A DNA stretch of 64,000 nucleotides from a virus: the IMG/VR virus record IMGVR_UViG_3300043803_002519. One strand, 5' to 3'. The notes below the pieces were generated by a model. That model saw nothing but the letters and a program-made list of their open reading frames with translations, was not told where the DNA came from and ran no database searches. Shown piece after piece: positions 4,647 through 52,359 of the stretch; within the stretch, counting starts at the first letter, position 1; every line of letters begins with the position of its first letter. A program made the position numbers and the translations under genes.

Positions 4647-4657
<11 letters not shown>
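2279..4657 (+). CDS. putative portal protein with Ala/Glu/Pro-rich C-terminal tail
   Basis: 792 aa ORF. The call rests on position just after the terminase and on size. No diagnostic motif was read. Confidence 0.5.
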
Positions 4658-5282
<625 letters not shown>

Positions 5283-5935: not shown

Positions 5936-5984
5936 TGACCGGCGGGTCAGAATGTGGTATCTTGGAGCGCACTCCGAGAGTTTC

Positions 5985-15242: not shown

Positions 15243-15683
15243 ATGGCTGAAGCCCAGAAGTACGACAAGACCCGCAACGCCAACGCGGCCGGCACCGGGG
15301 CCTTGACGGGCGCCTCTGGTGGGGTGGCTACGGGGGCCACCATTGGCGGTGCGCTGGGAACGGCGCTGGCCCCAGGCGTCGGGACGCTGATCGGCGCGGG
15401 CATTGGCGCCGCCATCGGCGCGGGCACGGGTGCCGGGGCCAGCGCTTGGATGGATGACGCGGCCCAGAAGCAGGAGATCAAGACCTCCGAGGAGAACGTC
15501 GCCATGGCGCAGAAGGCCGAGAAGGAGGCCGCCATCGACTCCGCCGCCCTGGCGCGGTCGATGCAGAAGCCCGCCTCGGGGCGCGCCGGCGGCGCCGGTC
15601 TGCCCAGCGGCTCGGCGTACCTCCCCGCCTCGGGGGTCACCAGCTACGACTCCTGGAAGTCCCGCATCTCCGGCGGGTACTGA
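15243..15683 (+). CDS. glycine-zipper membrane protein (internal virion protein candidate)
   Basis: GATIGGALGTALAPGVGTLIGAGIGAAIGAGTGAGA. The ATG at 15243 inside track ORF 14982-15683 was chosen. Confidence 0.5.
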   Translation: MAEAQKYDKTRNANAAGTGALTGASGGVATGATIGGALGTALAPGVGTLIGAGIGAAIGAGTGAGASAWMDDAAQKQEIKTSEENVAMAQKAEKEAAIDSAALARSMQKPASGRAGGAGLPSGSAYLPASGVTSYDSWKSRISGGY

Positions 15684-20047: not shown

Positions 20048-23000
20048 ATGCCGAGCCCGCGATCTCCCCAAGAAATCCTTGATGCGCTGGGGATGACCGA
20101 GGACGAGGTTCTCGGGCCCCTCCCGCCCAAGGACGCCGTCGAGCTCGCACCCGAGGACTACCGCGACCCGGAGGTCCTGCCCGTGGGCGAGGAGCCCCCG
20201 GAGGGTGGCGCGCGGACCCCGCGGGGTCGCATCGCCAAGGGCTACGCGAGTGCCGTCTACGAGGATGGGAACACTGCCCTCCGCTCGCTTCGCGGGGACG
20301 TGGCGGACCACCTCATCACCCAGGGGCTTGCCCCTGAAGACGCCAGGCTCACGGCCTACGAGGACACCCGGCACCTCGAGGCCACCGGCCACGTCGAGGA
20401 CAGCGAGGACGCGGCCGACGCCATCCGCGCGCGTGAGGGGGAGCCGACCGTCGGCAAGGCCCTCACCATGGCGGTCAACCGCGTCACCCCCATCGGGCTG
20501 GACCAGGGCCCGGAGGAGTGGGGTCGCCGCGTCCGCGAGAACGAGAAGGCCACCTGGGGCGAGCGGTCCGACGCGCTCGGCAAGGCCTTGCAGGGCGAGG
20601 AGATCACCGAGGCGGACGCCAAGGCGGCGGGCATTGACCTCCCGCTCGTGCAAGAGCTCAAGAAGGCCTACGTCTCCCACTTCGGGGAGATGGTCTACAC
20701 TGCCGGCTCGGCGGGCATCCTCCCGACCATCGGCTCCATCACGGGGCTGATTCCGGGCTGGAGCGACGTCGTCGAGCAGTCGGGCAAGAACCTCGAGGTG
20801 GCGAAGGAGGGGAAGAAGTATGTTACCTCCGAGGAGCTCGTCAAGATCGCCGCCTACGGCGGGGTCAACTCCCCCATCGGCGACGCCATCCCCTACATCG
20901 TGGATGCCGCGGTCGACTTCCATGACGTGGTCACCGGCGAGGACAAGCAGGGCAGGCTCCGCAGCGCGACCGGCGGGACCGTGGGGGACGTGTTCTGGGA
21001 CTTCGTCTCCAAGGGCCGGCACAACGAGAAGTTCGACCCCGCGGCCAAGGCCCTGTACGAAGAGGGGGATGTCGCTGGCTTGGGGCAGCTGGGCATGGTC
21101 GACATCCCTGAGCACGTTCCGGCGGTCAAGGTTGACCTGCCGACGTTGAAGAGCGCCGTGGAGGCGGGGGGTCTGCTGGCCGAGGCGCCCGAAGCAGATC
21201 GGTTCCGGGTGGGGATGTCCAGTGGTCTGTCCGACGAGGTGCTCCAGACCCTCGCTGACGCCATTCCTCTGGACGTGGTGCGCCGCGCGCAGCCGGACGC
21301 GGGCCCGACGTTGAAGTCCGTGCTCGCGGCCTACACGGCTCGCAAGAAGATTCAGGAGATCGTAGGCACCCCCGAGGCAGACGACGCCCTCAAGGTGGCC
21401 GCGGCCGCGCTCCACGACCGCGAGGTGCGGGAGGACGGCTCGGTGTACTTCGTGCCGTCCACCACGCAGAAGGTCCTGACCGCAATCAATGCGGCCGTGC
21501 CTCTCGTCATCGAGGCAGATGTTCCCGTTCTCGGGCCCGTCGCCGGCGTCTACGGGGGCGTGCTCAAGGCCATGGGCTTCGAGAAACTCGGGGGCATGGC
21601 GGAGTCGGCGAGGTTCCCGACGGCAGCTGGCAACGAGTCCATGGTCGCTTCCGGCGACTTCGATTGGGTCCTTGAGGGCATGGGCCTTCAGGGCAGCACC
21701 TCTTCCGAGCGTCGGCGCGACATCGGGGAGTCTCGGTACATCGACCGCGTGTTGGCCGACATGCAACTGCCCCAGTACCAGAACTGGGGCCTGAAGGAGC
21801 TCGGCCGCGACCTTGGGGTGAAGCCGGGCTCCACGGCGGACGTGGCCCTCGGGACCGCGGACCTTGGGGCGGACACCGTCGTGCCCTTCGAGGAGATGTT
21901 CCTCGGGCCCGCCGGCTCGGCGGTCACCATGGCCTCGCGCGCGGCGACGGCGGCGAAGCTCAGCAAGATGCTCGGGCGGAGCAACTCCCAGGCGGCACGC
22001 GTTGCGGTGCGAGCGGCGCTTCCCCAGTTCCTGGGCGGGTCGACGGATGCCGTCGCGGCCATGGACGCGGCCCTGCGGACGGCCGTCGCCGACTCGGTGG
22101 CGGCGGGCGAGGTGCTCTTCACGGTTGGCCGCGGCGAGGACGCCGTGAAGGGGACGCTCTCCAAGGAGGTCCAGCGTGCCGTCGGCAACCTCCTCGAGGA
22201 CGTGGGCATCCGCAAGGAGGACGTGTTTCGCACGGTCAACGACCTCTCCTTCGCGCAGAAGGCCAAGAACACCGTCATCGTGAAGGACTGGATGGCCCGG
22301 GGCACTCCCGAGCAGAAGGCCCTCCGCGAGACGGCGGAGTGGAAGGCGGTGCGACAGGGGCTGGAGGAGTCGGCCCCGCCAGAGGTCGTGGACGCTGGCA
22401 TGGCGCTCAACGAGTGGATGGCGCACCAGGCAGTGGTGCTGGGCGAGTTCCGCTCCCCCAAGGACTGGTTCGCCGCGCAGCGCGTGGGCAAGGCCATCGA
22501 CGGTGCCGCGCCTCCTCCGCCGCGCCCGACCACGGTCGCTGACGCCCTGCGCGCGGCCGCTACGGATGCGGACGGCGAAGTGTCGGCAATGGCTGCGCGC
22601 CTCTTGGCGATGAACCATCCGGCGGTGACGTCCGCCGCGCTCGACGTGGGCGTGGACCTCGGGCCCGGCGTGCACGGCCGCTACGACATCGCGGACAACC
22701 ACATCGTCCTGTCGCCGAGCGCGACCGCGAGCACCCTCGTCCACGAGGTGGCGCACGCGGTCACGGCCCACGCCCTTCGCAACGTCGACACCCTGTCGCC
22801 CGCCGGTCGCAAGGCGGTGGCGGACCTGCAGGCCCTGTACGCCAAGGCCTCGGAGTCCCCCGACCTGCAGGCCGTCGGCCTGGGTCTGGACAACCTCGAC
22901 GAGTTCATCGCTGAGGCCTACTCCAACCCGGCCTTCCGCGCGGCCTTGCGGAAGGTGAAGGTCACCCCCACCAAGAGCGCCTGGCGGGTGTTCGTCGACA

Positions 23001-26000
23001 CCGTGGGACAGCTCCTGGGTCTCAAGACCAAGCCTGAGCTCGACGCCCTCGACCGGACGCTGAGCAAGATCGAAGTCGTGGCCAAGGAGCGCGTGGTGCC
23101 GGGCCGCGGCGGAGGGTCTCTGGCTTCTCGGGCGGCGCTGGTCAAAGACCCGCCGGCCCCGGAGCCCCCCGACGTTCTTCCAGAGCGGCACCCCGCCGAC
23201 ACCTGGGCGGACGTCCGCGGTCCCATTGGGTGGTGGATGCCTCTCGACGAGGTCGAGTTCCGCATCGGTCAGATGGCGGAAGAGCACGCCATCTTCTTCG
23301 ACCGCGAGGGGCGCCAGATTGCGCGCTTCGGGCCGGAGGACACTCGTCGGGACGCCCCGGGGTACGATCCTGCCACCGCGTGCATCATCTACCCCAAGGC
23401 GCTGGACGACCTCGCGGCCTCGGGTGGCGGGGTCTACACCCACAACCACCCCAGCGGCAGCGCCCCGTCCATCGACGACGTTCTCGTGGCACGTCGCGGG
23501 AACGTGGACGCACTGCGCGCTGTCGCACGGAACGACGGATTCACCTGGGTCGTTCGCCGGCCAGAGGCGGGCTGGCCAGAGACCGATGTGTTGCGAAGGG
23601 CGTGGAAGGACCTCGCGCACACCGTGTACCTGTCTGCCAAGAAGCGCATGGACGCCCGCATCAAGGCTGCGGGGGGGAACCTCTGGGAGGGCGACCGGGC
23701 GGCTGGCTTCTCTGAAACCGTATGGAAGGAGTACCTCACGAATGGCTACGACACCCACTGGGCCGAATACTTCGGGGACCTTGGCATCGTCCTCGAGCGG
23801 GAACGGCACCCCCATCTTGGTCAACTCGGACTGGACGCCCCGGTACGGGGAGCCGCTGGTGCTCCCGGAGCCGGACCCGCAGTTGCTGGAGCCACCGAAG
23901 CGGCCCGCTACCCCGCCGTCGGAGTAGGCGAGCAGGGCAGGCTGTTCTCCCGTGCTGCGCCGGAAGGCGGCACTGTTCGGAAGGGCCGGCTGGGTTCGGA
24001 CCTCCCCCGACTGCTGGACCTGCTCGGAGCGAGCATGTACTCCAAGCCGCTCGCAGAGGTGGCTGTCAAGGAGTTGGTGCAGAACGCATTCGATGCAATC
24101 AAGGCCACTGCCCGCACGGATGGGCAGATTCACGTCACCCTGAACGCCCAGGAGCGCACCCTCTCGGTGGCGGACAACGGCAAGGGGATGACCCCGGAAG
24201 TCGTGCAGGACGCGCTGTTCACGGTCGGAGGAACCAACAAGGAGGGGCTCGCCGTGGGAGACCGCTCGGGCGGGCTGGGGTTGGCCAAGATGGCCTTCCT
24301 GTTCGGGTCCGAGTGGGTCGATGTGGACACGGTGCATGGGGGGGTTCGCACCCGCGTTCACGCCACGTCGGCGCAGATCAAGGCCTCCGACTTTGACATC
24401 GTGACTGAGCCTGCCCCCGGCGCGCCCAACGGAACCAATGTCACTCTCAAGATTCCGGAGACGTACCGAGACCCTGCCTCTGGAGCGGACCGCACCATCT
24501 ACCTCTTCAAGGAGCAGATGACGAGCGAGCAGGGGTCGGGGGTGCTGGACAGGCCGCTTTTCGGGAACGTCGAGGTCCTGTTCACGGAGGTTCCGCGGTA
24601 CGGAACGCCGTCAACCGCCACGCTGCCCGTTGGCAGGAACACTGACCCGCTCGCAACCCCCCTCCTGACCCGCGCAGCGTTCGACTGGGGCTCCGCGGAC
24701 GTCTACATGGGGGACGCCCGGAAGAAGTACCCCCGGCACCGAGTACTGTCTGCGGGACTGCATCAGTTTGATACTGCCATTCTCGCAGGTAACGAGCGCA
24801 TCCCCTACGACATCGTAGTTGACATTCGCCCGGGAGTGGACCCGCTCCACCCACACTACCCGTTCAACAACCAGCGGGAGGGGTGGCGCGGTACGGTCGA
24901 GGCCGACGTCAAGGCCCTGAACGGCTACATCGCCAAGCACTCCAGCGGCCGCGCCGCCGCAGAGACGTCGGACGTGTTCAAGGGGGCCGTCACGATGCCC
25001 CGTGTGGCGCCCGACGACCTGGATGTCGGAGCGGCCGCTCCCGCGGCTGTGAAGGCGTTTGCGCCGAAGGCTCCCCCTTCTCCACCCCCCGAGGGCGCCG
25101 CGGCCCCGAGGGCGCCCGACGTAATCAAGATCAGCGCCGGCGCTGTGGCCCCTTCGGTATCGGAGCGGGCGGCCCCAGACAGCTTCCGTCCCGAGAGGGC
25201 GGCCCCCGACCTTCAGTCCTTCGTCGGGTCCGTGGCCGTGGACCCCCTGAAGCCGCTCTTCCACAACAACACGGGAGTCGACTACATCGGCGCGGTGCGG
25301 GCGGCGCTGCCTGGCGCCGAGCCCGAGCGGTTCCTCGCGGAGATGGGGTCGCTGGTCCTCGACTTCAAGGAGGCCGCGGCCAAGCAGGACAAGTACGGTC
25401 TGGCCGATCTGGTCTCGTTGGAGAACCCCTACGCTGCAGGCATCTCCATCGACAAGGACTACCGAGGGGTTCACGTCAAGGTCCCGTACCGCGCGTTCTT
25501 CCTGAATCCCCTCGCGGCCACCAACGAGACCGCGTCGGGCCTTGCGGAGAGCATGCTCCACACGCTGGTCCACGAAGTGGCGCACACGACCGTGATGGCG
25601 CACAACGAGAACTTCGCTCTCGCGCTGGCGGACGTTTACGACCGGCTCGGAGACTCCGGGGACACAGACATCTTCCGGGCGCGGCTGCGGAAAATACTGA
25701 CGCGGCACCAAGACACCTTCAACGAGATGAGGCGCATCTATGACAGCCCCCGCACAAGCAATCTCCGAGGCGCTCTGGAAAACGGCGAGCAGCTTTCCAC
25801 CCGAGGAGCGCCCGGCCCAGGTGAAGGCGGCCCTGGAGCAGCACCTGGAGATGCTGCAGCAGTCGGGGGGCTCGACGGAGATGCAGGCCCCGCTCGTCGA
25901 GGCGTTGGAGAGCCTTCTGCTCGAGAACTGATCGAGGCGGCTCTGCCGGGTCTCTCCGGGCACGGGAACGCCGCGCGGCCGGGTCCGCTCTACTCCCGCG

Positions 26001-29000
26001 CGGCCCCGGCCCCCTCGGCAGTCCCGAAGCCGTCGCTTCCTGAACCCACCGACGAGGTGCGTCGAGCGCATCAAGCCCTCGTCGTCAAGCGACTGCTGTC
26101 GCCGAGCGCAGAGACGCGCGCGGCGCACCAGGCGTACCAGGCGGAGCACCCCGAGGTGCTTGCATGGGCGGAGTACCGGGCGGCTGTCGCCGACGCAGAG
26201 TTGGCTCAAGCGCGCGAAGCTGCCCGCGCGGAGTACGAGGCCGGAGCCCCCGCCCGTCAGGCTGCAGCGGACGCGAAGGCGGCACGGTATGCGGACGCGA
26301 AGGCGACCGGAAAGAAGCTGCCCCCGGAAGAGCGGGCGATGAATCGTCGCGAGTGGTTCGGGGACTCCGCGGTGACGACCACGGGCGAGGCCGGTGGGAA
26401 GCCGCTGGTCGTCACGCACGAGTCGCCGTCAAAGTTCTCGGAGTTCCGGGCAGGGGAGTTCGGCTTTCACTTCGGGGTCGGCATCCCCGACGGGATGTTC
26501 GGCAGCAACCGGGTGTCGGGGCTGCTCCGCATCAACAACCCGATGCGGATGGCTGACCTCGGGGTGTGGACGCCGGAGCGGGTCCTTGCGGAGGGCGGGT
26601 TCAGCACCGCGGAGCAACCGCGCCTGCTGGCGGAGGTTGAACGGATTCGGGCGGAGGCGGACGCGCCGACGAAGGCCATGGTCGCGAAAGCACGGGCTTC
26701 TGGAGACGTGGCCACGGCCGAGAAGTGGCAGGCCCTCTTGGAAGATGGCAGCGATGCGGCGACCTTCCGCGACCGCCGCGGGAACTACCTGGCGAGCCGG
26801 CCGGTGCATGACGCCCTCCGCGAGAAGGGCTACGACGGCATCGTGTACCGCAACGAGGCGGAGGGGGTCGACGACTCCTACATCGCCTTCGAGCCGCAGC
26901 AGTTCAAGTCGAACAAGAACGTCGGGACCTACGACGCCACCGACCCCCGCTTCCTGTACAGCCGCGCCGCGCCAGCCCGCGCCGCCGAGGAGGCGGCCGA
27001 GCCCCTGCCCGTGTTTCGATCTCCTGCCGCCACAGAGCAGCGCTGGCATCGGATTGGCGACGACCATCAGTACACCGAGTTGACCATCTCCCCTGAGGGG
27101 GCGCTGGACCCGTCGTTGCCGAGCTACGCGAAGCGGGGAAGGATGTCCAGCGGTCGCGGGACAGGGTTCGCCTCTGGCATGTACGCATTCGCTGACGCGC
27201 GCCAGGGGACGGTTCCCGTTCTCCCCGCCCGGAACCCCCTGACGCTTCGGTCGTGGGGGCTTGAGGTGCCCAACGCGGCGGCCGAGTTCCAGCGGGATGC
27301 GTCGTCTCTCCTGTTCCTCGCGGAGCGCCTTCGCGACCTGTCTCCGGCGAAGCGCGCAGAGGCCATCGATCTGTTGCGCGCGAGGGTGTCCTCCTCCTTC
27401 GAGGAAGTGTACGACGCCGAGAAGCGCCTTGCCTCCCCCGAGTTCGGCATTGGTCGGGGTGTGTTTGGCGGGGAGCCCAAGTTCCCGTCCGACCTCGCGA
27501 CCGCCCTTGACCCCCTCCTCTCGCGCTGGCGGAGGGTGGGTGTGCCTGCGGGCCTCGACGGAGCCGGCACGGTGGACGCGCTGATCGATGCGGCGGCGAC
27601 GTGGGGCAAGCACCAGCATGTCCACCCGGTGAACATCCTGCTGAGTCGAATGGGCCACGACGGCATCGAATGGGCGGGAGGGGCGCTCAAGGAAGGCAAC
27701 ACCGGCGCCCACGGCTTCGTCAAGTTCCCGCCCATCACCGCAGACGGCGCTCTCGTTGACGTCGTTCCAGACCCTCGTCATGGCTACGCGGTGACGCACG
27801 GTGGGCGCGACCCGCGGGTGCTGTACTCCCGCGCCGCGCCAGCCCGCGCCGCCGAGTACCGCGGTGTAGACGGCAAGCCCCGCACCGCCACCATGTTCAG
27901 CGGCGGTGGGCTGGTCGAGGCGGGTCTCCGCAAGTACATCGACCCGGTGTTCGCGGTCGAGGTGAGCCCTGAGATCGGAGCCGCGTACAAGGCGGCCCAC
28001 GGCGACCACGTCCGCATCGACGACGTCCGCAACGTCGACCTCGGCGAGGCTGGCGACGTGGACTACCTGCACGCCTCCCCGGTCTGCAAGAACTTCAGCG
28101 CCGCCAAAGCCGTCACGGAGTCCGGTGAGCAGCCCCTGGACCTTGAGACGGCTCGGGCCACCGCCGACGCCGTCCACCGCACCCAGCCCGCGGTCTTCAC
28201 GCTGGAGAACGTGCGGGGCTACCAGGGCACCGAGGCCATGGGGCTGGTCGAAGCCGCGCTCCGCGAGGAGGGCTACACCTTCGACGCCAACGTCTACGAC
28301 GCGGCCGACTACGGCGCGGCCACCCGACGCAAGCGTCTGCTGCTCCGGGCGGTGAAGGACGGGGACCTCCCCCCGGTCCCGGCGCCCACGCACGGGCCCG
28401 GCCGGGCGCAGCCCTACGCCGACTGGTACGCCGCCGTTGAGGACCTCGTAGATGACCTGCCCGACGACGTGGTCCCCCCGTGGATGCGACGGCGCCTCGA
28501 GGCGGCGGGGATCGATCCCGACGCGCCGGCGAAGCCCACCATCGTCATGGGCGGCAGCGCTGGGAAGAACGTGCCCTACGCGGAAGCGGGGGGGCCTGCC
28601 CCCACGTTCAAGGCCACGCCGGGCGAAGCGCACCGCATCATCTTCCCCGACGGGCGGGTCAAGCGGGTCACGCCCCGCGCAGCCGCTCGCATCACGGGCC
28701 TGCCTGACGACTACCCGCTGCCCACCAAGAACGCGACGGCGACGACGGTCATCGGCAACGGCGTGCCCCCGGCCCTGAGCGAGGCGGTGTTCGCGCCGCT
28801 CTTGGCGGGCGACCATGTGCCGGGGACGCTCTACTCCCGCGCGGCGCCTATTGAAGACGCCGCGCCCGGCATCGTGGCCCTCCGCAAATACATGCTGGAT
28901 GCGGCCGGCGACGATACGGCGTTCGACGCCAAGGTCTACGCTGAGCGCAAGCAGGTCTGCGCGTTGACCGGGCACTGCAACGCGGCGGCGTACATCGTTC

Positions 29001-32000
29001 AGAAGCGCTACGGCGGCGAGCTTCTGAGTGCGAAAGTCGACGGCGAAACGCATGTATGGAACCGGCTCGCCGACGGCACCGAGATCGACCTCACCGGTTC
29101 GCAGTACGGCGGGGACGGGTTTCACCCGGTAGCGAAGAATGGAAAGGTGGTGCCACTGCGATCCACGGTGAACCCGCGGTTTGCAGCGTTTGAAGACCGC
29201 GTGGCCGCTGCGGAGCTGCGCGCTGCGCGCGACCCTCGGTTCCTCTACTCCCGCGCCCCCGGCAACCAGACCGACACGCCCGCCTTCCAGCGCTTCATCG
29301 AGGGCACCAAGGCCGTGGACGAGGACGGCGCGCCGAAGCGGCTGTACCACGGCACCACGCACGACTTCGAGGCCTTCGACGCGCAGAGTGGGAACGTCGA
29401 GAACCACCACGGCCGTGGCATCTACCTGACCTCGTCGGAAGGCGACGTCGGGTCCAACTACGCCACCCGCGAGGGGCCCGACCTCAAGAGCCGCATCGAG
29501 TCCCAGATGGAGTCCCTCCTCGACGTCTGGGACGACCCCAGCGTGGCGCAGGACTTCGTCGAGCGGTGGCTGGAGGCGCACCCTGAGCGCGCCGCCGAGG
29601 GCGAGCGGCTGGTCCAGGTGCTGGACGACGGGGGGAACCCCGACGCGAATCTCTTGCAGGAGATCACTCGGTGGGTAGCCGAGCAGGAGATTGCTGGCTC
29701 GCACGGGGGCGCAGTCCTGCCCGTCTACGCCGCCATCAAGAACCCCGTCGATTTGCGGCCCGGCAAGGTGACACGCTTCGACATCGAGACGAAGTGGTCC
29801 GAGGACGGTGAGGACTTCCTCGGCGAGACCGGGGCCGGCGTGGAGGCCATCGACGCCATCCGCCGCATGGCCAACTCCTCCGACACGGCGGACCTGATCA
29901 TCGAGGCGCTCGGGGACATCTCCGAAGGGTTCGACGCCGCTGACCTCGAGCGCGCAGTGCGGGACAACTCCATCGAGTTCCTCGACGACGACTCTTCAGC
30001 GGGGCAGTTCCTTCAGGACGTCTACCGCGAGCTGGGCTTCGACGGCATCGTCATCGACGCCTACAAGACCTTCGGCCCCCGGCGCGCAGGGTGGGGGGTA
30101 AACCTCCCCGGCATGGCGGGGCTGACCCCCGGCACGGAGCACTGGGTCGCCTTCGAGCCCACCCAGGTCAAGTCCGCCACGGGCAACCGCGGCACGTTCG
30201 ACCCGAAGGACAAGCGCCTCTTGTACAGCCGCGCGCCTGACGGCCCGACGTGGACCGCCGAGCCCCCGCCCCCGGGCGACAAGGTCCCCGGCATCGTCGA
30301 CAACCCCGCCCACGCGGCTTGGTCCAAGACGAAGCGTGACCTTGCGAAGGATGTCGCGGACCTCGAGGACGCGGAGCTATCCGCGTGGTGGGAGCACTAC
30401 GGGCCCTCTCCGGACGCGCCGACGGTCGCGCCCAGGCCGAAGAACTTCGCCGAGGCTCAGGCCTACTGGACCGAGCACGGCGACGACCCGGCGGAGTTCC
30501 CCGAGCCCTCCCCCGAGCTCTCTGCGAAGCTGCAGGCCCTCGACGATGCCAACGCCGCGCCCGAGCCCTCGCGCACCACCGCAGGCTTGGTGAACGACCC
30601 GGCCCGCGTCATCGTCCGCTACTTCAAGACCGCCAACATGCAGGCCCTGCTCGAGCAGAACGCTCAGGTCATCCGCATGCTGCTCGGGGAGAAGTGGGCG
30701 GGCGACCTCATGCGCTTCTTCGACCACGAGGTCGACACAGCCTCCGGCCAGGTGCGCCTCACGAAGAAGGGCGAGGAGCAGTTCAACGTGGCCCTCGCCC
30801 GCGTCCTGCGCGGCGACCTCGCGCCCCGCGGCCGGGTGCGGGCGTACTTCGAAGAGCTCCGCGATGCGCTGAGCGACATCTGGCTGAACCTCCGCGGCAA
30901 GCCCATGTCGCTGCCCCCCGGCTTCCGCCAGTGGTGGGACGCCACCCTCGACCCGGCCAAGCACCTCCGCGCCCGGGTGAAGGTCTCCGACGAACGCTTC
31001 GGGCGCCAGCCGCTCGAGGTCAACGTCACCGTGAAGGCGAACGACCCCGACGCTCCCCCGCCGCCGGACCCCACGCGCCTCGGGCGGGAGCTCGCCGACG
31101 TCACGGACGTCATCTACCGAGAGGACTTCAAGCGCGCCAACGCTCTGCACGAGTACTGGAACCTGCCCCTGACGCCCGGGCAGAAGCGCCACGCCCTCGG
31201 CATCCTGGGCAGCGACACCGACGTGGATGCTGTCGAGGCCGTGGCCAAGGCCATCGCGCTCCTCGGCACGACGCAGGCCCGCCGCCGCTGGGGCTTCTCC
31301 GGCAAGGTGGTGCGGGTGGGTCGGCGCAGCCAGGTCTCCGAAGACCGCAAGGAGAGCGTGCTGAAGCGCGCCCGCGAGGCCTTGCACGGGGCCATCGGCG
31401 GCGACGTGGTGGCCGCTCCCGACGGCGGGGTGACCCTCACCCCCGAGCAGGCCAAGGGCCTCGCCGCACACCTCGACCACCTCGTGGACGCCGGGTGGGG
31501 CGAGCAGCTGCCGGACGAGTTGATCAGTCCGCAGAAGGACCTCACCAAGCTGACCGAGCAGGAGTGGTCGGACATCGCCAACACCACGGTCGACGACGTG
31601 GCGGGCCCTGGCAGCTACCGCGACCGCCAGGCCGACCGGGTCGTGGGCAACGCCGCGGAGAGCCTCCTCGGCCGCGCGGTCGACGCACTGTCCACCGTGC
31701 CCATCTTCAACGGCGTGCGCCGGAAGCTGACCGAGGCCTTCGACACGACCTTCGCCGGCAGCAAGAACATCAACCCCGCCGTGGCCGAGGTGGTGGACGG
31801 GTGGCGTCGCGAGTTCAGCGACGTGGCATCCCAGATTGCCCGCCTTCGTGAGCATGTTCGCGCGGGCACTGCAGACGAGACGGCCGAAGTCCTGATTCGG
31901 AAGATTGCCAAGGAACTGCCCGCCGTGGGCCCCGACCCCAAGGTGGTCGACGACCTGGTGGTGCTGAACCGCGCCCTCAACCCTGAGGGGGACGTCACGC

Positions 32001-34762
32001 CGACCGTGCAGACCTTCCTCGACAACAAGGCCGCACTACGCGCGCTGTTCGACGCGACGCCGGCCCACGGTCCCGCGGGCATCGTCGAGGCCGACGCGCT
32101 CCCCCGCCTCCTCCGCCTCGACGCGACGTCGGACATCAAGGACCCGGTCATCGCCGCGGCGATTGAGGTGATCCAGACCGGCATCCGCCGACGCTACGAG
32201 GCGGTGCGTGACACCGGCCTCCGCATCGAGCAGCGTATGTCCGGCCGCGCCGACCTCGGCGTGGCGACGGGCGACCCCAACCTCCCCATCAACGCCTACA
32301 AGCTGTGGTACGCGGGCAAGTACCAGGAGCTCGCCGCTCAAGCCCAGCGCCGCGGCCAAACCACCGACCCAGGCAAGTCCGGCGCGTCGGGGAGCTCGAG
32401 CGACGCGGCGGGCCTCGTGTTCGACCCAGTGTCCGGCGCCCTCGCGGTGGTGACGGGTCTCCTCGCCGACGGCGTGCTGGCCTCGGCGGCGGCCGATATG
32501 ATGCGCCTCGGCCTGCCGGTGCACACCGACAGCGTCAACTTCGGCGGGCGCAACTTCGACCAGTGGGTGCCGCTCGGCAGCACCTCGATGTCCCGGGCGA
32601 AGTACCGGGCGCTGGTGCAGGAGTACATGAACGCCATCCTCAGCTTCCAGGGTTCGCAGTCCAAGCAGTTCAACGAGGCGCGGGAGTTCGTGGGGACCGA
32701 GATGCTCCCGGTCCAGGTGTCGGGGCTGAACGATGGAAAGTTCGACCCGTCCGCCTGGGCAGACGCGCACCGCATCCTCGACTCTTGGGGCATCAAGAGC
32801 AACACCTCCGGGATGGAGACGATGGTCCTCCCGACGGGCGAAGAAGTGTTCATGCCCAAGATCATCAAGGACGAGCTCACCGGACTCTTCGACCGCACGG
32901 CGAAGGCTGGGCTCCCCTGGACGAAGTCGGCGGAGGGCGAGCCCGACAAGATTCTCGGCCGGTTCGGCGAGTTCGTGGACGGGAGGCTCTACCCCAACAA
33001 CAACCTCCAGTACAAGGGCAAGGGGAGCCTCGCCGACAACGTCAACATCGCCGTCCGGACGATGGTCAACATCCCCGGCCGCACTCTCGCCATGGCGCGG
33101 GTCGGCGTCACCACGGGCGTCGGCATCCCCAACCCCGCCTTCTACATCGGCAACGTCTTCGGCGGCCTCCTGCAAGCCGTCCAGAGCAAGGGCGCTGTGG
33201 GCACGGCGCGAATGCTGGGCCGCTACCTGCCCGGCGTCGGCGGAGATGCCGGCAAGGTCCTCCGCAGCGTGTTCTGTCGGGTGTGGGGCGACTCTCAGGG
33301 CTACTTCAAGCCTGCTTCGGGGTCGTTCATCGCCGACAACGGCGCGGTCATCAGCGACGACTTCATCACCAAGACCGTGGTCAAGTACGGTCTGCACACG
33401 TCGCAGCCGCGGGCCGAGTCGGCCATCCGCATCATCGACGACCTTCGCAACCATGAAGGCACGTTCTGGACGCGGGTGAAGCGCGACCGCATCTTCGACG
33501 TGCCGCTCCTCGGCACTGCGGAGAGCGCGGTCCGGACGGGCGTGTCTACGACCTTCCGCTACTGGCAGGGCATCCTCGGAGACGCAGCCACCGCAGTGGA
33601 CGACCTCTTCCGCGTGGCGACCTACGTCGACGAGCTCGCCGGCGGGGTCGCCCCGGCCGAGGCCGCCGCCGTCGCCCGCCGCACTTCCTTCGACTACGCT
33701 GACCTCACGGACTTCGAGAAGGAGCACCTGCGTCGGTTCATCATGTTCTACACCTTCCAGCGTCGCAACGCCGACCTGTTCTGGTGGACGATGCTGAACC
33801 ACCCTTCCCGCATCATGGGCCAGGTGCGTGCGGTGCGGGACGCGCAGGAGCACTTCCTCGGAGAGGACGACTCCGAGAGCATCCTCCCCGAGCACCTCGA
33901 CGGGCGCCTCATCATCGGGATGCGGAAGACTCTCGGCGACGAAGCGGCCCTGCGGGGCTCCCTCGGCACGATGACCGTCGCACCTCCGCTCCCGGCGATG
34001 GACCACCTCGGGCTGTGGGTCTCCATCTTCCGGTCCTTGAACAGCGACGAGCCGCGGGGCGGGCGCGAGATCATCTCCCGCCTGGCCCCCGAGTACCAGG
34101 CGCCGTTCGTCCTCGGCCTGGAGGTCGACATCTTCTCCGGCCGCGACCTCGCCGCCTTCAACACTGTCCCCTCGTGGATGGTGGAGATGGACCGCCAGAT
34201 TTCCGGCGGGGCCATGGTCGACGACCTGTTCAAGGTCCGCAAGACGGAGAACAGCGACCCCTCCCGTGACGAGGCCCCCGGCGTAGATCGCTGGGAGCCC
34301 ACGGGAGAGGGCGCGAAGTGGTGGTGGGTCTTCCGCAACCTCGTGCAGGTCCCGCCGTTCGGCCGGGGCACCGATACCATCACCCAGATGGCTCGGGCGG
34401 ACTGGATTGTCGGGGACGTCGTGAACGGTGCCCGGTGGTATCGAGCCACTCAGGGCCCCGTGGGGGCCATCCGCGACAACCTCACCGACCCCTTCTTCCG
34501 CAGCGTGGTCCGCCCGATGATGGACGCCCTCCCTCACGTCGACCCTTCGGCGGTGCAGGTCTACGAGCCCCCGGCCATCGTGGAGGACCTCAACATTGAG
34601 CGCGCCGGCTACACGCCGGGCCTTGAGGCCGCGCAGCTGTTCGGCGTCAAGAGCGTCATCGTACCGACGGCCGCCATCGCGGCGGACGAGGACGAGGTAG
34701 GTCGCCGTCGCCGCATCAGCACCGCGGCCTCCGAGGAGCGGAAGCGCGACCCCTACCGGTAG
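20048..34762 (+). CDS. giant multi-domain (polyvalent-type) virion/ejection protein, 4904 aa
   Basis: Single uninterrupted ORF with several independent enzyme motif sets (listed below as sub-features). It sits between internal-virion genes and tail-fibre genes, and a hairpin plus T-run follows the stop. Confidence 0.85.
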   Translation: MPSPRSPQEILDALGMTEDEVLGPLPPKDAVELAPEDYRDPEVLPVGEEPPEGGARTPRGRIAKGYASAVYEDGNTALRSLRGDVADHLITQGLAPEDARLTAYEDTRHLEATGHVEDSEDAADAIRAREGEPTVGKALTMAVNRVTPIGLDQGPEEWGRRVRENEKATWGERSDALGKALQGEEITEADAKAAGIDLPLVQELKKAYVSHFGEMVYTAGSAGILPTIGSITGLIPGWSDVVEQSGKNLEVAKEGKKYVTSEELVKIAAYGGVNSPIGDAIPYIVDAAVDFHDVVTGEDKQGRLRSATGGTVGDVFWDFVSKGRHNEKFDPAAKALYEEGDVAGLGQLGMVDIPEHVPAVKVDLPTLKSAVEAGGLLAEAPEADRFRVGMSSGLSDEVLQTLADAIPLDVVRRAQPDAGPTLKSVLAAYTARKKIQEIVGTPEADDALKVAAAALHDREVREDGSVYFVPSTTQKVLTAINAAVPLVIEADVPVLGPVAGVYGGVLKAMGFEKLGGMAESARFPTAAGNESMVASGDFDWVLEGMGLQGSTSSERRRDIGESRYIDRVLADMQLPQYQNWGLKELGRDLGVKPGSTADVALGTADLGADTVVPFEEMFLGPAGSAVTMASRAATAAKLSKMLGRSNSQAARVAVRAALPQFLGGSTDAVAAMDAALRTAVADSVAAGEVLFTVGRGEDAVKGTLSKEVQRAVGNLLEDVGIRKEDVFRTVNDLSFAQKAKNTVIVKDWMARGTPEQKALRETAEWKAVRQGLEESAPPEVVDAGMALNEWMAHQAVVLGEFRSPKDWFAAQRVGKAIDGAAPPPPRPTTVADALRAAATDADGEVSAMAARLLAMNHPAVTSAALDVGVDLGPGVHGRYDIADNHIVLSPSATASTLVHEVAHAVTAHALRNVDTLSPAGRKAVADLQALYAKASESPDLQAVGLGLDNLDEFIAEAYSNPAFRAALRKVKVTPTKSAWRVFVDTVGQLLGLKTKPELDALDRTLSKIEVVAKERVVPGRGGGSLASRAALVKDPPAPEPPDVLPERHPADTWADVRGPIGWWMPLDEVEFRIGQMAEEHAIFFDREGRQIARFGPEDTRRDAPGYDPATACIIYPKALDDLAASGGGVYTHNHPSGSAPSIDDVLVARRGNVDALRAVARNDGFTWVVRRPEAGWPETDVLRRAWKDLAHTVYLSAKKRMDARIKAAGGNLWEGDRAAGFSETVWKEYLTNGYDTHWAEYFGDLGIVLERERHPHLGQLGLDAPVRGAAGAPGAGPAVAGATEAARYPAVGVGEQGRLFSRAAPEGGTVRKGRLGSDLPRLLDLLGASMYSKPLAEVAVKELVQNAFDAIKATARTDGQIHVTLNAQERTLSVADNGKGMTPEVVQDALFTVGGTNKEGLAVGDRSGGLGLAKMAFLFGSEWVDVDTVHGGVRTRVHATSAQIKASDFDIVTEPAPGAPNGTNVTLKIPETYRDPASGADRTIYLFKEQMTSEQGSGVLDRPLFGNVEVLFTEVPRYGTPSTATLPVGRNTDPLATPLLTRAAFDWGSADVYMGDARKKYPRHRVLSAGLHQFDTAILAGNERIPYDIVVDIRPGVDPLHPHYPFNNQREGWRGTVEADVKALNGYIAKHSSGRAAAETSDVFKGAVTMPRVAPDDLDVGAAAPAAVKAFAPKAPPSPPPEGAAAPRAPDVIKISAGAVAPSVSERAAPDSFRPERAAPDLQSFVGSVAVDPLKPLFHNNTGVDYIGAVRAALPGAEPERFLAEMGSLVLDFKEAAAKQDKYGLADLVSLENPYAAGISIDKDYRGVHVKVPYRAFFLNPLAATNETASGLAESMLHTLVHEVAHTTVMAHNENFALALADVYDRLGDSGDTDIFRARLRKILTRHQDTFNEMRRIYDSPRTSNLRGALENGEQLSTRGAPGPGEGGPGAAPGDAAAVGGLDGDAGPARRGVGEPSARELIEAALPGLSGHGNAARPGPLYSRAAPAPSAVPKPSLPEPTDEVRRAHQALVVKRLLSPSAETRAAHQAYQAEHPEVLAWAEYRAAVADAELAQAREAARAEYEAGAPARQAAADAKAARYADAKATGKKLPPEERAMNRREWFGDSAVTTTGEAGGKPLVVTHESPSKFSEFRAGEFGFHFGVGIPDGMFGSNRVSGLLRINNPMRMADLGVWTPERVLAEGGFSTAEQPRLLAEVERIRAEADAPTKAMVAKARASGDVATAEKWQALLEDGSDAATFRDRRGNYLASRPVHDALREKGYDGIVYRNEAEGVDDSYIAFEPQQFKSNKNVGTYDATDPRFLYSRAAPARAAEEAAEPLPVFRSPAATEQRWHRIGDDHQYTELTISPEGALDPSLPSYAKRGRMSSGRGTGFASGMYAFADARQGTVPVLPARNPLTLRSWGLEVPNAAAEFQRDASSLLFLAERLRDLSPAKRAEAIDLLRARVSSSFEEVYDAEKRLASPEFGIGRGVFGGEPKFPSDLATALDPLLSRWRRVGVPAGLDGAGTVDALIDAAATWGKHQHVHPVNILLSRMGHDGIEWAGGALKEGNTGAHGFVKFPPITADGALVDVVPDPRHGYAVTHGGRDPRVLYSRAAPARAAEYRGVDGKPRTATMFSGGGLVEAGLRKYIDPVFAVEVSPEIGAAYKAAHGDHVRIDDVRNVDLGEAGDVDYLHASPVCKNFSAAKAVTESGEQPLDLETARATADAVHRTQPAVFTLENVRGYQGTEAMGLVEAALREEGYTFDANVYDAADYGAATRRKRLLLRAVKDGDLPPVPAPTHGPGRAQPYADWYAAVEDLVDDLPDDVVPPWMRRRLEAAGIDPDAPAKPTIVMGGSAGKNVPYAEAGGPAPTFKATPGEAHRIIFPDGRVKRVTPRAAARITGLPDDYPLPTKNATATTVIGNGVPPALSEAVFAPLLAGDHVPGTLYSRAAPIEDAAPGIVALRKYMLDAAGDDTAFDAKVYAERKQVCALTGHCNAAAYIVQKRYGGELLSAKVDGETHVWNRLADGTEIDLTGSQYGGDGFHPVAKNGKVVPLRSTVNPRFAAFEDRVAAAELRAARDPRFLYSRAPGNQTDTPAFQRFIEGTKAVDEDGAPKRLYHGTTHDFEAFDAQSGNVENHHGRGIYLTSSEGDVGSNYATREGPDLKSRIESQMESLLDVWDDPSVAQDFVERWLEAHPERAAEGERLVQVLDDGGNPDANLLQEITRWVAEQEIAGSHGGAVLPVYAAIKNPVDLRPGKVTRFDIETKWSEDGEDFLGETGAGVEAIDAIRRMANSSDTADLIIEALGDISEGFDAADLERAVRDNSIEFLDDDSSAGQFLQDVYRELGFDGIVIDAYKTFGPRRAGWGVNLPGMAGLTPGTEHWVAFEPTQVKSATGNRGTFDPKDKRLLYSRAPDGPTWTAEPPPPGDKVPGIVDNPAHAAWSKTKRDLAKDVADLEDAELSAWWEHYGPSPDAPTVAPRPKNFAEAQAYWTEHGDDPAEFPEPSPELSAKLQALDDANAAPEPSRTTAGLVNDPARVIVRYFKTANMQALLEQNAQVIRMLLGEKWAGDLMRFFDHEVDTASGQVRLTKKGEEQFNVALARVLRGDLAPRGRVRAYFEELRDALSDIWLNLRGKPMSLPPGFRQWWDATLDPAKHLRARVKVSDERFGRQPLEVNVTVKANDPDAPPPPDPTRLGRELADVTDVIYREDFKRANALHEYWNLPLTPGQKRHALGILGSDTDVDAVEAVAKAIALLGTTQARRRWGFSGKVVRVGRRSQVSEDRKESVLKRAREALHGAIGGDVVAAPDGGVTLTPEQAKGLAAHLDHLVDAGWGEQLPDELISPQKDLTKLTEQEWSDIANTTVDDVAGPGSYRDRQADRVVGNAAESLLGRAVDALSTVPIFNGVRRKLTEAFDTTFAGSKNINPAVAEVVDGWRREFSDVASQIARLREHVRAGTADETAEVLIRKIAKELPAVGPDPKVVDDLVVLNRALNPEGDVTPTVQTFLDNKAALRALFDATPAHGPAGIVEADALPRLLRLDATSDIKDPVIAAAIEVIQTGIRRRYEAVRDTGLRIEQRMSGRADLGVATGDPNLPINAYKLWYAGKYQELAAQAQRRGQTTDPGKSGASGSSSDAAGLVFDPVSGALAVVTGLLADGVLASAAADMMRLGLPVHTDSVNFGGRNFDQWVPLGSTSMSRAKYRALVQEYMNAILSFQGSQSKQFNEAREFVGTEMLPVQVSGLNDGKFDPSAWADAHRILDSWGIKSNTSGMETMVLPTGEEVFMPKIIKDELTGLFDRTAKAGLPWTKSAEGEPDKILGRFGEFVDGRLYPNNNLQYKGKGSLADNVNIAVRTMVNIPGRTLAMARVGVTTGVGIPNPAFYIGNVFGGLLQAVQSKGAVGTARMLGRYLPGVGGDAGKVLRSVFCRVWGDSQGYFKPASGSFIADNGAVISDDFITKTVVKYGLHTSQPRAESAIRIIDDLRNHEGTFWTRVKRDRIFDVPLLGTAESAVRTGVSTTFRYWQGILGDAATAVDDLFRVATYVDELAGGVAPAEAAAVARRTSFDYADLTDFEKEHLRRFIMFYTFQRRNADLFWWTMLNHPSRIMGQVRAVRDAQEHFLGEDDSESILPEHLDGRLIIGMRKTLGDEAALRGSLGTMTVAPPLPAMDHLGLWVSIFRSLNSDEPRGGREIISRLAPEYQAPFVLGLEVDIFSGRDLAAFNTVPSWMVEMDRQISGGAMVDDLFKVRKTENSDPSRDEAPGVDRWEPTGEGAKWWWVFRNLVQVPPFGRGTDTITQMARADWIVGDVVNGARWYRATQGPVGAIRDNLTDPFFRSVVRPMMDALPHVDPSAVQVYEPPAIVEDLNIERAGYTPGLEAAQLFGVKSVIVPTAAIAADEDEVGRRRRISTAASEERKRDPYR
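22625..23080 (+). other. zincin metallopeptidase domain 1 (MPTase-PolyVal-like)
   Basis: TLVHEVAHAVTAH (HEVAH at 22742-22756), plus downstream NLDEFIAEAYSNPAFRAAL, a pattern I associate with polyvalent-protein metallopeptidases. Confidence 0.6.
23225..23580 (+). other. RadC-like JAB/MPN metallopeptidase domain
   Basis: VYTHNHPSGSAPSIDDV (23441-23479) matches the HxHPSG..PS..D JAMM signature, one residue shorter than canonical. An upstream Glu lies in QMAEEHAIFF. Confidence 0.65.
23942..23962 (+). other. inter-module motif a: LFSRAAP
   Basis: Context GRLFSRAAPEGG, aa 1299-1305. Confidence 0.9.
24000..24460 (+). other. GHKL (HSP90/MORC/histidine-kinase-like) ATPase domain
   Basis: N-box ELVQNAFDAIKA (24071...), G1 box VADNGKGM (24173...), G2-like SGGLGLAKMAF. 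Confidence 0.6.
25430..25650 (+). other. zincin metallopeptidase motif region 2
   Basis: HTLVHEVAHTTVMAH (HEVAH at 25571-25585). It shares the octapeptide TLVHEVAH with domain 1. Confidence 0.5.
25988..26008 (+). other. inter-module motif b: LYSRAAP
   Basis: Context RPGPLYSRAAPAPSA, aa 1981-1987. Confidence 0.9.
26009..26953 (+). other. ART-like module 1 (putative ADP-ribosyltransferase fold, divergent)
   Basis: LVVTHESPSKFSEF, GEFGFHFGVG and YDGIVYRNEAEGVDDSYIAFEPQQFKSNKNVGTYDATDPRF. This module is paralogous to module 29261-30220. Confidence 0.4.
26954..26974 (+). other. inter-module motif c: LYSRAAP
   Basis: Context DPRFLYSRAAPARAAEE, aa 2303-2309. Confidence 0.9.
27821..27841 (+). other. 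inter-module motif d: LYSRAAP
   Basis: Context DPRVLYSRAAPARAAEY, aa 2592-2598. 34 of 36 nt are identical to copy c. Confidence 0.9.
27842..28828 (+). other. C5-cytosine DNA methyltransferase domain
   Basis: Motif I ATMFSGGGLVEAG, motif IV HASPVCKNFS, motif VI FTLENVRG, motif VIII YGAATRRKRLLL, motif X IGNGVPPAL. Confidence 0.85.
28829..28849 (+). other. inter-module motif e: LYSRAAP
   Basis: Context PGTLYSRAAPIEDA, aa 2928-2934. Confidence 0.9.
28850..29242 (+). other. small transglutaminase/papain-like Cys-His-Asp module
   Basis: LTGHCNAAAYIVQKRYGGELLSAKVDGETHVWNRLADGTEIDLTGSQ has spacing like the transglutaminase-core pattern C...HxW...D. Confidence 0.35.
29243..29260 (+). other. inter-module motif f: LYSRAP
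   Basis: Context DPRFLYSRAPGNQ, aa 3066-3071. Confidence 0.9.
29261..30220 (+). other. ART-like module 2 (ART-PolyVal-like)
   Basis: RLYHGTTHDFEAFD, GRGIYLTSSEGDVGSNYA and EHWVAFEPTQVKSATGNRGTFDPKDKRL give an H / Y-x-S-T / E arrangement. Confidence 0.45.
30221..30238 (+). other. inter-module motif g: LYSRAP
   Basis: Context KDKRLLYSRAPDGP, aa 3392-3397. Confidence 0.9.
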
Positions 34763-34766
34763 CTGT

Positions 34767-34803
34767 AAAACCTACCCGCCGGTCGGTTTTGTGTTATCGT
34801 TGC
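34767..34803 (+). promoter_or_regulatory. terminator-promoter cassette, copy 2
   Basis: AAAACC...GGTTTT hairpin plus T-run starting 5 nt after the giant ORF stop, then TGTTATCGT. 26 of 27 nt are identical to 6621-6647. Confidence 0.5.
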
Positions 34804-34837
34804 CTCCTCTTCGTTCTCTTCCCTTTCGAGGTCTCCA

Positions 34838-52353: not shown

Positions 52354-52359
52354 GGCGGC

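Follow-up and report, generated by a model that had tools for sequence, protein, structure and literature searches.

This report concerns a single giant open reading frame (ORF) in a 64,000-nucleotide stretch of viral DNA, IMG/VR record IMGVR_UViG_3300043803_002519, hereafter called the window. The ORF lies at 20048..34762 on the + strand, runs from ATG to TAG over 4,904 codons plus the stop, and encodes a protein best read, with a probability that we put at about 0.6, as a virion-associated effector polyprotein, in which a conserved frame carries a series of cassettes and the linkers between them are cut by the protein's own zincin metallopeptidase domains. The frame comprises an N-terminal domain of ~820 residues, a zincin of the type found in the virion RNA polymerase (vRNAP) of phage N4 and a C-terminal module of ~1,500 residues, the last ~580 of which are the hallmark of the family; by analogy, it would bring the protein into the virion and then out again with the DNA. 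The interchangeable payload comprises a JAB/RadC-like module, a GHKL ATPase with a second zincin, a variant ADP-ribosyltransferase (ART) module, a module termed M3, a C5 cytosine DNA methyltransferase, a YunG-family module and an ART-PolyVal domain. Zincins acting in cis would cut the linkers, in the capsid or after ejection, to release about eight independently acting pieces, so that the methylase, the ARTs, the ATPase and the other modules would then act separately. Such cleavage would be the processing step foreseen by Iyer, Burroughs, Anand, de Souza & Aravind in 2017 (PMC5512222), who predicted both co-delivery with DNA and zincin-mediated processing for polyvalent proteins, and it also follows the logic of the MARTX toxins.

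The linkers are copies of one short peptide. The pattern [LF][YF]SRA is matched seven times in the giant ORF, at residues 1299, 1981, 2303, 2592, 2928, 3066 and 3392, where protein shuffles give an expectation of 0.013, and it occurs in no other reading frame of the window. Every copy sits between two modules, usually as D-P-R-x-L-Y-S-R-A-(A)-P and within a flexible segment rich in Ala, Gly and Pro. Linker 1 reads L-F-S-R-A (aa 1299-1303, 23942..23956; this and all features below lie on the + strand unless stated), and the remaining six read L-Y-S-R-A: linker 2 (aa 1981-1985, 25988..26002), linker 3 (aa 2303-2307, 26954..26968), linker 4 (aa 2592-2596, 27821..27835), linker 5 (aa 2928-2932, 28829..28843), linker 6 (aa 3066-3070, 29243..29257) and linker 7 (aa 3392-3396, 30221..30235), the last before the C-terminal frame; an equivalent of linker 7 stands before the C-module in L011, L012, P0001 and P0002. 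A degenerate copy, L-A-S-R-A (aa 1025-1029, 23120..23134), marks the junction of zincin 1 and the JAB-like module and aligns with a canonical LYSRA in P0004, a second full-length giant (4,881 aa, locus L012 on a TARA Oceans scaffold) that is co-linear with the window protein from residue 1 to the C-terminus. Both this degenerate copy (model residues 178-203) and the ~44 residues before linker 1 are predicted to be disordered.

Across 22 linker instances from five loci, Ser is encoded by TCC or AGC and Leu by CTG, CTC or TTG; the instances were gathered with a pattern that demands S and R, and their informative part is this codon variety. Since varied codons encode the same peptide, it is the peptide rather than a DNA repeat that is conserved. 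L[YF]SRR variants are present in three to four copies in the distant giants P0044 (5,508 aa) and P0051 (4,482 aa), and single linker copies stand before the C-module or after zincin 1 in other relatives. The possibility that LYSRA is merely the tail of the ART-PolyVal domain was considered and rejected: the distant ART-PolyVal proteins of Tunturiibacter phage Tunturi_5 and Myxococcus phage Mx1 have the ...Q[IV]KS..GN.G.F.. end of the domain in common but lack LYSR, and in the window the motif also follows modules that are not ARTs.

To judge from their alignments, comparison with two related phages shows that cassettes have been gained, lost and exchanged at linker boundaries. Against L012 the frame is 64-72% identical in nucleotides, and two tracts stand far above it: 25988-26968 (96.4%), which begins with linker 2 and ends with linker 3, both complete, and 29230-30244 (92.1%), which starts 13 nt short of linker 6 and stops 9 nt past linker 7. 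These two cassettes adjoin in L012 through a hybrid junction (...DPRFLYSRTPGNQ...), whereas in the window M3, the methylase and YunG separate them. The JAB, M3, methyltransferase and YunG modules are missing from L012, which carries an extra ART-PolyVal and a module of ~510 residues that is also found, by inspection, in P0002. Against L013, a close relative on an ENA GROS21 scaffold, the frame is 84-98% identical, and the tracts 25988-26989 (98.7%), 27808-28845 (87%) and 29243-35084 (97.8%, with linker 6 as its left edge) begin and end at linkers. M3 and YunG are missing from L013, a different stretch of ~757 residues replaces JAB, GHKL and most of zincin 2, and an extra ART-like insert (FYHGSPNANL...), without LYSR linkers, separates the N-domain from zincin 1. 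M3 in the window lies between the two copies of a 49-nt direct repeat (26941-26989 and 27808-27856, 88% identical) that encodes the linker plus APARAAE and contains linker 3. G+C at third codon positions (GC3) is 0.90-0.94 in the frame and 0.78-0.83 in JAB, GHKL, zincin 2, M3 and YunG (23156-25987, 26969-27820 and 28844-29242), which suggests that these cassettes were imported more recently, from sources of lower GC3. More tentatively, and at rather less than even odds, we propose that the LYSRA-type peptide is a dual-purpose ‘plug’, at once the recognition site of the zincins and an in-frame joint for recombination.

The two ends of the protein, in which a preliminary description of this DNA had found no nameable motif, proved to be the conserved frame of a large family and not filler. 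For the C-terminal 1,508 residues a word-indexed search returned two homologues, and an exhaustive profile search with the C-module brought up 3,614 representative clusters at E <= 1e-3 and, at the stricter E <= 1e-30, 117. With few exceptions the proteins are giants, 2,000-7,833 aa long, that match at their extreme C-terminus, and the window protein, earlier called unusually large, is therefore not the largest of them. Module mapping covered the best 150 of these 3,614 representative clusters. The N-terminal frame domain (aa 1-820, 20048..22507), of no known family and without a match in Pfam, NCBIfam or PDB, is present in 16 of the 150; its identity is 51% with P0004, starting at residue 1, and 26-29% with P0006 and P0007, the latter a protein of 2,579 aa that has just the N-domain and the C-module in common with the window protein. 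The C-module divides into C1 (aa 3397-3744, 30236..31279), C2 (aa 3745-4320, 31280..33007; 36 of 150, no known family) and the C3 core (aa 4321-4904, 33008..34759), which all 150 possess, nearly always at the extreme C-terminus. C1 and C2 occur in the nearer relatives within this set, and the payload (ART, JAB, methylase, YunG, zincin 1) is sporadic.

No Pfam or PHROG family matches the C-terminal region in the window protein or in seven distant members, and the Pfam model of LPD38 (PF18857) likewise found no member among these proteins, the likeness to LPD38 being one of fold. The AlphaFold2 model of C3, built from 27 sequences, is mostly helical, with a predicted local distance difference test (pLDDT) score of 73 and a predicted template modelling (pTM) score of 0.71. 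Foldseek found no match for it in PDB, T7-type internal core proteins included. In BFVD it returned 36 matches at E <= 1e-3, and with few exceptions these were C-terminal parts of proteins that bear the annotation ‘large polyvalent protein associated domain’, LPD38 proteins and those of the E. coli phages PTXU04 and phi191 among them. With phi24B gp47 there is a weak profile match just N-terminal of LPD38 (hhalign probability 28%; hmmsearch 11.8 bits). From its model, C3 may be remotely related to an LPD38-type module. As regards the T7-type proteins gp14-gp16, no PDB match was obtained by sequence, nor by fold for C3. The C-terminal encapsidation domain of N4 vRNAP was also tried as a counterpart of C3 and discarded, as hhalign to N4 aa 3378-3443 gave a probability of 0.7% and phmmer and a 172-sequence hidden Markov model (HMM) gave nothing. 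The C2 region of P0002 (locus L001) contains a glycine-zipper-like hydrophobic insertion (GELGGAIGGAALGTALAGPGLGTLIGAAGGAIL) absent from the window protein; in some lineages such an insertion may give the frame a membrane-active part.

Zincin 1 (22508..23116), recognised earlier from HEVAH (aa 899-903, nt 22742-22756) and DEFIAEAYSNP (aa 951-961), is by sequence homologous to the metallopeptidase-like region of N4 vRNAP and appears to correspond to the metallopeptidase domain reported from that protein by Iyer et al. It matches phrog_2206 ‘virion RNA polymerase’ (E 4.7e-11), and a seven-sequence profile aligns with N4 vRNAP aa 2220-2324 (HELVH...NEF) at an hhalign probability of 85.6% (E 5.5e-6). 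In its AlphaFold2 model (pLDDT 75-90) three strands accompany an HExxH helix and a Glu helix. Pfam gave no match, MPTase-type models included, and the Foldseek search of PDB was not significant, with N4 vRNAP (9pnr) at probability 0.66. HExxH is kept in 13 of 13 proteins with a match of this type (12 representatives and the window protein), and both HEVAH and DEFIAEA are conserved across these family proteins. The second zincin (aa 1651-1980, 24998..25987) stands by its HEVAH (aa 1842-1846, nt 25571-25585) and falls short in Pfam, where the matches centred on HExxH are all below threshold (Zincin_1 E 0.023, YgjP-like, WLM); the region is 28% identical to its equivalent in P0004. A third site, in the C1 part of the frame a short way past the last linker and laid out in the relatives on the HExxH...E plan of zincin 1, reads EQNAQ in the window protein (aa 3536-3540, nt 30653-30667; GEEQFNVA at aa 3575) and in the close relative P0003, and HEN[AG]H in twelve relatives (HEQGH in one), several of which have GEEQxAEA ~35 residues further on. 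With the site reading EQNAQ, both His and the catalytic Glu have been lost in these two proteins, and on sequence C1 looks like a pseudo-protease within a conserved C-terminal frame. The frame zincin being degenerate here, any cutting would fall to zincins 1 and 2. The family as a whole, as far as motifs tell, tends to keep a zincin next to linkers.

That the linkers are cut is something we infer, and several observations weigh against it or against the virion setting. N4 vRNAP, the closest characterised bearer of a zincin of the first type, is packaged unprocessed (Iyer et al., PMC5512222), and zincin 1 may for that reason serve encapsidation rather than proteolysis. Neither of the candidate proteases matches an MPTase-type Pfam model, zincin 2 stays below every threshold, and the zincin embedded in the frame is dead in the window protein itself. 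Most of the 150 representatives lack a repeated LYSR-type linker, the motif being restricted to certain lineages. The virion location is read from gene order and a remote similarity of fold, and for C3 the missing Pfam LPD38 match, the weak figures for phi24B gp47 given above and the empty PDB comparison with T7-type internal core proteins all count on the same side.

The strongest competing explanation accepts frame and cassettes and holds that the chain stays intact, the uncut linkers acting as flexible joints for recombination microhomology or for partner binding. We regard it as unlikely, though it is the one that the unprocessed N4 polymerase favours, and the recombination breakpoints at linkers and the 49-nt repeat around M3 would also suit it. 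Against it stands a peptide that is kept while its codons vary (TCC/AGC for Ser, three codons for Leu), the opposite of what selection for DNA microhomology only would lead one to expect; related linker variants that persist in distant lineages, and intact zincins retained beside linkers in the family, weigh on the same side. Disparate enzymes, moreover, presumably need different targets in the cell, as Iyer et al. argued.

Cleavage at the linkers by a head-maturation protease of the phage, or by a host protease, instead of the protein's own zincins, seems to us improbable. There is precedent in T4 and phiKZ, whose prohead protease processes internal head proteins at short consensus sequences, and the degenerate frame zincin and poorly supported zincin 2 of the window protein would fit such an arrangement. 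A prohead-protease family was not detected among the structural-block genes, however, and the linker motif is absent from every other frame of the window, so that the site is found in no further virion protein; two intact HExxH domains are available in cis.

We give a similarly low likelihood to the protein being an external tail component of a long-tailed phage, tail-tip/Tal-like or associated with the tape measure, instead of a podovirus ejection protein. The genes around the giant ORF bear on this. Two genes 5' of it lies an 843-aa helical protein, and a likewise upstream 146-aa glycine-zipper protein with GxxxG runs (15243-15683) gives weak matches to tape-measure, tail-lysin and endolysin PHROG segments (best phrog_794, E 8e-6), both of which could speak for a tail, as could the Siphoviridae- and Myoviridae-labelled proteins among the BFVD matches of C3; the PHROG matches of the 146-aa protein probably reflect its Gly-rich, membrane-type segment alone. 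Against this, no tail-tube, sheath, tape-measure or terminator family was detected for any of the larger genes. The 691-aa upstream product matches phrog_511 ‘internal virion protein’ and phrog_3287, as well as a ‘virion structural protein’ family, with weak tblastn matches to genes annotated ‘phage stabilization protein’. The best-characterised relatives by fold are podoviral, and one of them, phi24B gp47, is not visible in the external structure of its virion; ART, methylase and ATPase enzymes, besides, need the cytoplasm. The ‘internal-virion’ and ‘tail-fibre’ labels given earlier to the neighbouring genes are weakly supported: beside the matches of the 691-aa product, the neighbours of the giant ORF had no family match in scans of the family libraries. 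Directly 3' lies a 330-aa product rich in Gly, Ala, Thr and Ser, with many GGAGG-type repeats, a fibre-like composition and no family match (34838-35830). By analogy with phi24B gp47, a podovirus ejection slot for the giant ORF is plausible; the podovirus assignment is one that we infer.

That the long ORF is an artefact of assembly or sequencing that joins several genes is practically out of the question, even though a base composition of ~70% G+C favours long spurious frames (the longest antisense ORF in the window reaches 1,528 aa) and one relative appears split, because an identical protein is called on 12 contigs, coding-type GC3 continues unbroken along the frame, shuffling yields at most 767 stop-free codons, the co-linear P0004 is also full-length and the split has an explanation of its own. 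The 4,904-codon ORF is real and is one gene. Its translation contains no internal stop; when the 64-kb window was shuffled 200 times, the longest run without a stop reached 414 codons in the median case and 767 at most, so that the ORF is 6-12 times any of these, and the two remaining + frames across 20048-34762 have 79 and 53 stops. GC3 stays at 0.76-0.95, with G+C at first codon positions above that at second positions, throughout. The 12 contigs with the identical 4,904-aa protein come from a public assembly collection; five were inspected, each from a different Joint Genome Institute (JGI) metagenome sample, and they carry 0-2 nucleotide changes per 14.7 kb, all silent and at third codon positions. 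This held even in L004 and L006, where the upstream sequence differs from that of the window and the neighbouring genes differ slightly in length. The recurrence on 12 contigs and the silent-only differences in the five exclude a frameshift or an assembly chimera, and the uninterrupted 14.7-kb frame first reported for this locus is borne out. In L013 the giant gene is seemingly split into 1,159 and 3,594 aa, and the break coincides with a run of N at ~10000-10061 of the scaffold; the apparent split stems from this gap.

Turning to the payload, the motifs listed in the preliminary description are all present: HEVAH at aa 899 and 1842, DEFIAEAYSNP at 951, HNHPSG at 1132, ELVQNAFDA at 1342, DNGKGM at 1376, and FSGGG, SPVCKNFS, ENV, TRRKR and GNGVPP for the C5 methyltransferase. 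Profile searches took ART-PolyVal, DNA_methylase and HATPase_c_3, and YunG too, above their Pfam cut-offs, and with these four families the reading as a polyvalent protein, i.e. unrelated enzymes on one polypeptide in the late/structural block, is upheld. The targets of the modules would be macromolecules of the host or the phage, in the first moments of infection.

The JAB/RadC-like module (aa 1037-1298, 23156..23941) was proposed from its HNHPSG..PS..D motif (HNHPSG at aa 1132-1137), and this part of the case, with a compatible predicted topology, stands. The motif, HNHPSGSAPSIDD, has x6 spacing where x7 is expected, its loop being one residue shorter than in E. coli YicR, and it is preceded by a conserved Glu; the model shows strand-HxH-loop-SxxD-helix at pLDDT 85-95. 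Family searches lend no support, as Pfam and NCBIfam had no match, BLASTP against YicR aligned just 23 aa at the motif, and Foldseek against PDB was not significant (weakly, deaminase-fold proteins and Npl4). Similar modules are 46-47% identical in P0002 and P0006, and phmmer also found them in P0008, P0010 and P0034. The next module (aa 1304-1650, 23957..24997) is a GHKL ATPase, as first suggested, and more specifically Hsp90/HtpG-like: Pfam HATPase_c_3 scores 38.6 bits (cut-off 25) and HATPase_c 36.3 bits, also above its cut-off, over aa 1337-1471; the NCBIfam HSP90 family matches at E 6.7e-14, TRAP1/HtpG in PDB at E 1e-5, and both the N-box (ExxxNAxDA, aa 1342) and the G1 box (DxGxG, aa 1376) are present. 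Since the HSP90 score lies well under the NCBIfam equivalog cut-off, it is not an HtpG orthologue.

Two ART-like modules had been recognised, and both are of this family by sequence, though of unequal standing. ‘ART6’ (aa 3071-3391, 29258..30220) matches Pfam ART-PolyVal at 76.2 bits over aa 3091-3390, has the H-Y-D motif strings LYHGTTHDF, GRGIYLT and GFDGIV, and by tblastn resembles polyvalent proteins of Tunturi_5 and Mx1. ‘ARTl2’ (aa 1986-2302, 26003..26953) scores 27.5 bits, below the cut-off of 31.2, but matches phrog_21376 (E 1.2e-22) and, across the whole domain, a custom ART HMM (E 6e-12), which identifies it by sequence as a true, divergent ART-PolyVal homologue; it has H-F-D for H-Y-D and, with this Y-to-F change in the triad, is possibly inactive. 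Its cassette is 96-99% identical in L012 and L013. M3 (aa 2308-2591, 26969..27820), missing from both these loci, has no assignment and no match in Pfam, NCBIfam, PHROGs or PDB; it was considered as a third ART, for which a shared G[HYF]DGI motif and an ART HMM value of E 0.02 gave no support.

The C5 cytosine DNA methyltransferase (aa 2597-2927, 27836..28828), for which a complete motif set had been claimed, is on sequence a predicted enzyme: Pfam DNA_methylase scores 105.9 bits over aa 2614-2915, phrog_116 matches at E 1.8e-45, M.HhaI and DNMT1 are found in PDB, and motifs I, IV, VI, VIII and X are present, with P-V-C for P-C in motif IV and T-R-R-K-R for Q-x-R-x-R in motif VIII. At 43185-44417 (+) the phage has a free-standing C5 cytosine methyltransferase of 410 aa (phrog_116, E 2.5e-90) that is 29% identical to the embedded one; it thus encodes two distinct C5 methylases, one of them potentially delivered by the virion. 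The module taken earlier for a Cys-His-Asp transglutaminase-like domain (aa 2933-3065, 28844..29242) has no such match in Pfam, NCBIfam or PDB and turned out to be YunG, a Pfam family of unknown function (54 bits, cut-off 27, aa 2971-3021). It is missing from L012 and L013, and a similar module stands at the N-terminus of the Mx1 polyvalent protein. Its sequence (...GHCNAAAY...SAKVDGETHVWN...) is like a single WD40 blade (GH...D...W); a WD40 assignment was rejected, as the PDB similarity contains no individually significant stretch and is read as inflated by repetitive targets.

The giant ORF makes up about one fifth of a phage genome that is probably complete at ~70 kb: the JGI contigs L003-L007 are mostly ~70.1 kb (70,131-70,178 bp) and carry the same genome with differing start points, and contigs of the same size starting at different points suggest a complete genome that is circularly permuted or terminally redundant. 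Phage replication genes lie on the same contigs. Terminase stands at the start of the window, a virion structural protein 5' of the giant ORF, and a peptidase M15 (endolysin-type) with other syntenic genes 3' of it, those 3' genes being syntenic in L011 at 75-82% nucleotide identity. The hairpin and T-run reported just after the stop are there (34766..34796), but as a terminator they are weak, with a folding energy of -11.3 kcal/mol and a z score of -1.4; 19 of 200 shuffles fold as well, and a terminator scan made no call. Relatives of the phage come from a TARA Oceans scaffold, a JGI contig and an ENA scaffold. The 185,579 GTDB genomes scanned yielded no prophage copy of the giant C-module, and an IMG/VR scan was also without the locus. 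With the two terminal parts of the protein as queries, megablast and tblastn searches of 50,697 GenBank phages were empty, as were a search of plasmids with zincin 1 and JAB and one of phages with the portal candidate. Queries of aa 1-1310 and aa 863-1258 found nothing in word-indexed searches, a result that is uninformative, as they also missed the 46%-identical module of P0002.

Elsewhere in the window, a 211-aa product at 4647-5282 (+), after a portal-sized gene, has a long run of alternating acidic D/E residues followed by PFPYREPLPPYKAPSF at its end, and no family match. The ORF at 5571-6587 (+) begins with ~130 codons rich in Arg, Ser, Thr and Pro, like an out-of-frame translation, and its true start is probably near 5970; Pro/Met-rich repeats (PPMEGPPMEGPP) and a helical tail suggest a scaffold-like product. 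A replication block at 49639-57623 (-) encodes three products, a helicase-like one of 904 aa, an exonuclease of 719 aa and a primase/polymerase of 931 aa (phrog_1156, E 2e-82), and coincides with a sharp rise in GC skew, 0.10-0.23.

Among known systems, the polyvalent proteins of Iyer et al. (PMC5512222) are the class to which the window protein belongs: it unites many unrelated enzymatic domains in one giant polypeptide in a phage late/virion neighbourhood, shares their themes of zincin-like metallopeptidase and DNA methylase, and has ART-PolyVal and zincin 1 as signature domains, with no Pfam LPD match. It differs in having no MuF domain and in its repeated boundary peptide and linker-to-linker exchange, which are not described in that paper, where the word ‘linker’ is absent and C5 cytosine methylase, GHKL/Hsp90-like and YunG modules are unmentioned. 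RadC-like modules are confined to conjugative elements in that survey, whereas here one is found in a phage-type protein. Experimental support for giants of this kind comes from E. coli podoviruses with LPD38: phi24B gp47 (2,811 aa), which mass spectrometry showed to be abundant in virions, has been proposed as an ejection protein (bioRxiv 10.64898/2026.04.10.717836), and the polyvalent gp25 of PTXU04 is required for infection (PMC11879866). Like the window protein, both are giants encoded with structural genes, and their C-terminal region resembles C3 by fold, with the weak profile matches beside the LPD38 of gp47; unlike them, the window protein has no Pfam LPD38, LPD1, LPD5 or MuF_C, its similarity in sequence is marginal and its payload is different. 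LYSR-type linkers are not reported in these two proteins, in which no motif search was made.

The N4 virion RNA polymerase (gp50, 3,500 aa) is likewise a giant protein of a ~70-kb phage, encapsidated and injected as is proposed for the window protein, and shares with it the HExxH...E domain (N4 aa 2220-2324). The window protein contains no RNA polymerase module, matches being confined to the zincin region with nothing further by phmmer, and there is no supported similarity between C3 and the N4 C-terminus; N4 vRNAP, in addition, is itself not processed.

In MARTX toxins, conserved N- and C-terminal delivery regions flank a variable array of effectors, an internal protease cuts the linkers between domains, and the effector repertoire is reshuffled by recombination between strains. 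Conserved ends around an exchangeable payload make these toxins a functional analogue of the window protein, to which they have no relationship in sequence or fold. MARTX toxins have a cysteine protease domain and glycine-rich repeats and are exported from bacteria by type I secretion; here a phage virion would do the carrying, and the proposed cleavage would fall to a zincin. Polymorphic toxins offer a second parallel, with a short conserved peptide at a module junction: VENN in CdiA and PxxxxDPxGL in Rhs mark the junction of constant and variable parts, which serves as a recombination joint and, in Rhs, as a self-cleavage site. They have one junction and one toxin tip, in contrast to the seven to eight junctions in series here, with several payloads and no immunity genes.

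The polyvalent class is thus already known, and its giant virion-borne members have recently been backed by experiment. New relative to the literature consulted are the frame as a very large unannotated family, the boundary peptide, the swapping of cassettes at that peptide and the degenerate zincin of the frame, together with a domain set in which a RadC-like module of a phage-type protein is joined by Hsp90-like GHKL, C5-methylase and YunG modules. The literature found names neither cleavage sites nor assembly rules for polyvalent proteins; the peptide, in its seven to eight copies, provides concrete candidate sites for the processing predicted in 2017. The locus and its relatives also supply direct comparative evidence that payload enzymes move between phages as cassettes bounded by linkers. 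The family runs to thousands of clusters and its C-terminal core, for which Pfam and PHROG have no model, is probably a marker of virion-delivered effectors across many uncultivated phages. If the linker code proves right, the mature products of such giants would become predictable, and the frame would be a natural scaffold for delivering chosen enzymes into bacteria via phage particles. Should the peptide indeed serve both as recognition site and as recombination joint, the protein would be a plug-and-play effector polyprotein, a phage counterpart of MARTX with the first defined cleavage code of the polyvalent class, in which new enzymes slot into a fixed delivery frame, are injected together and are released as separate proteins.

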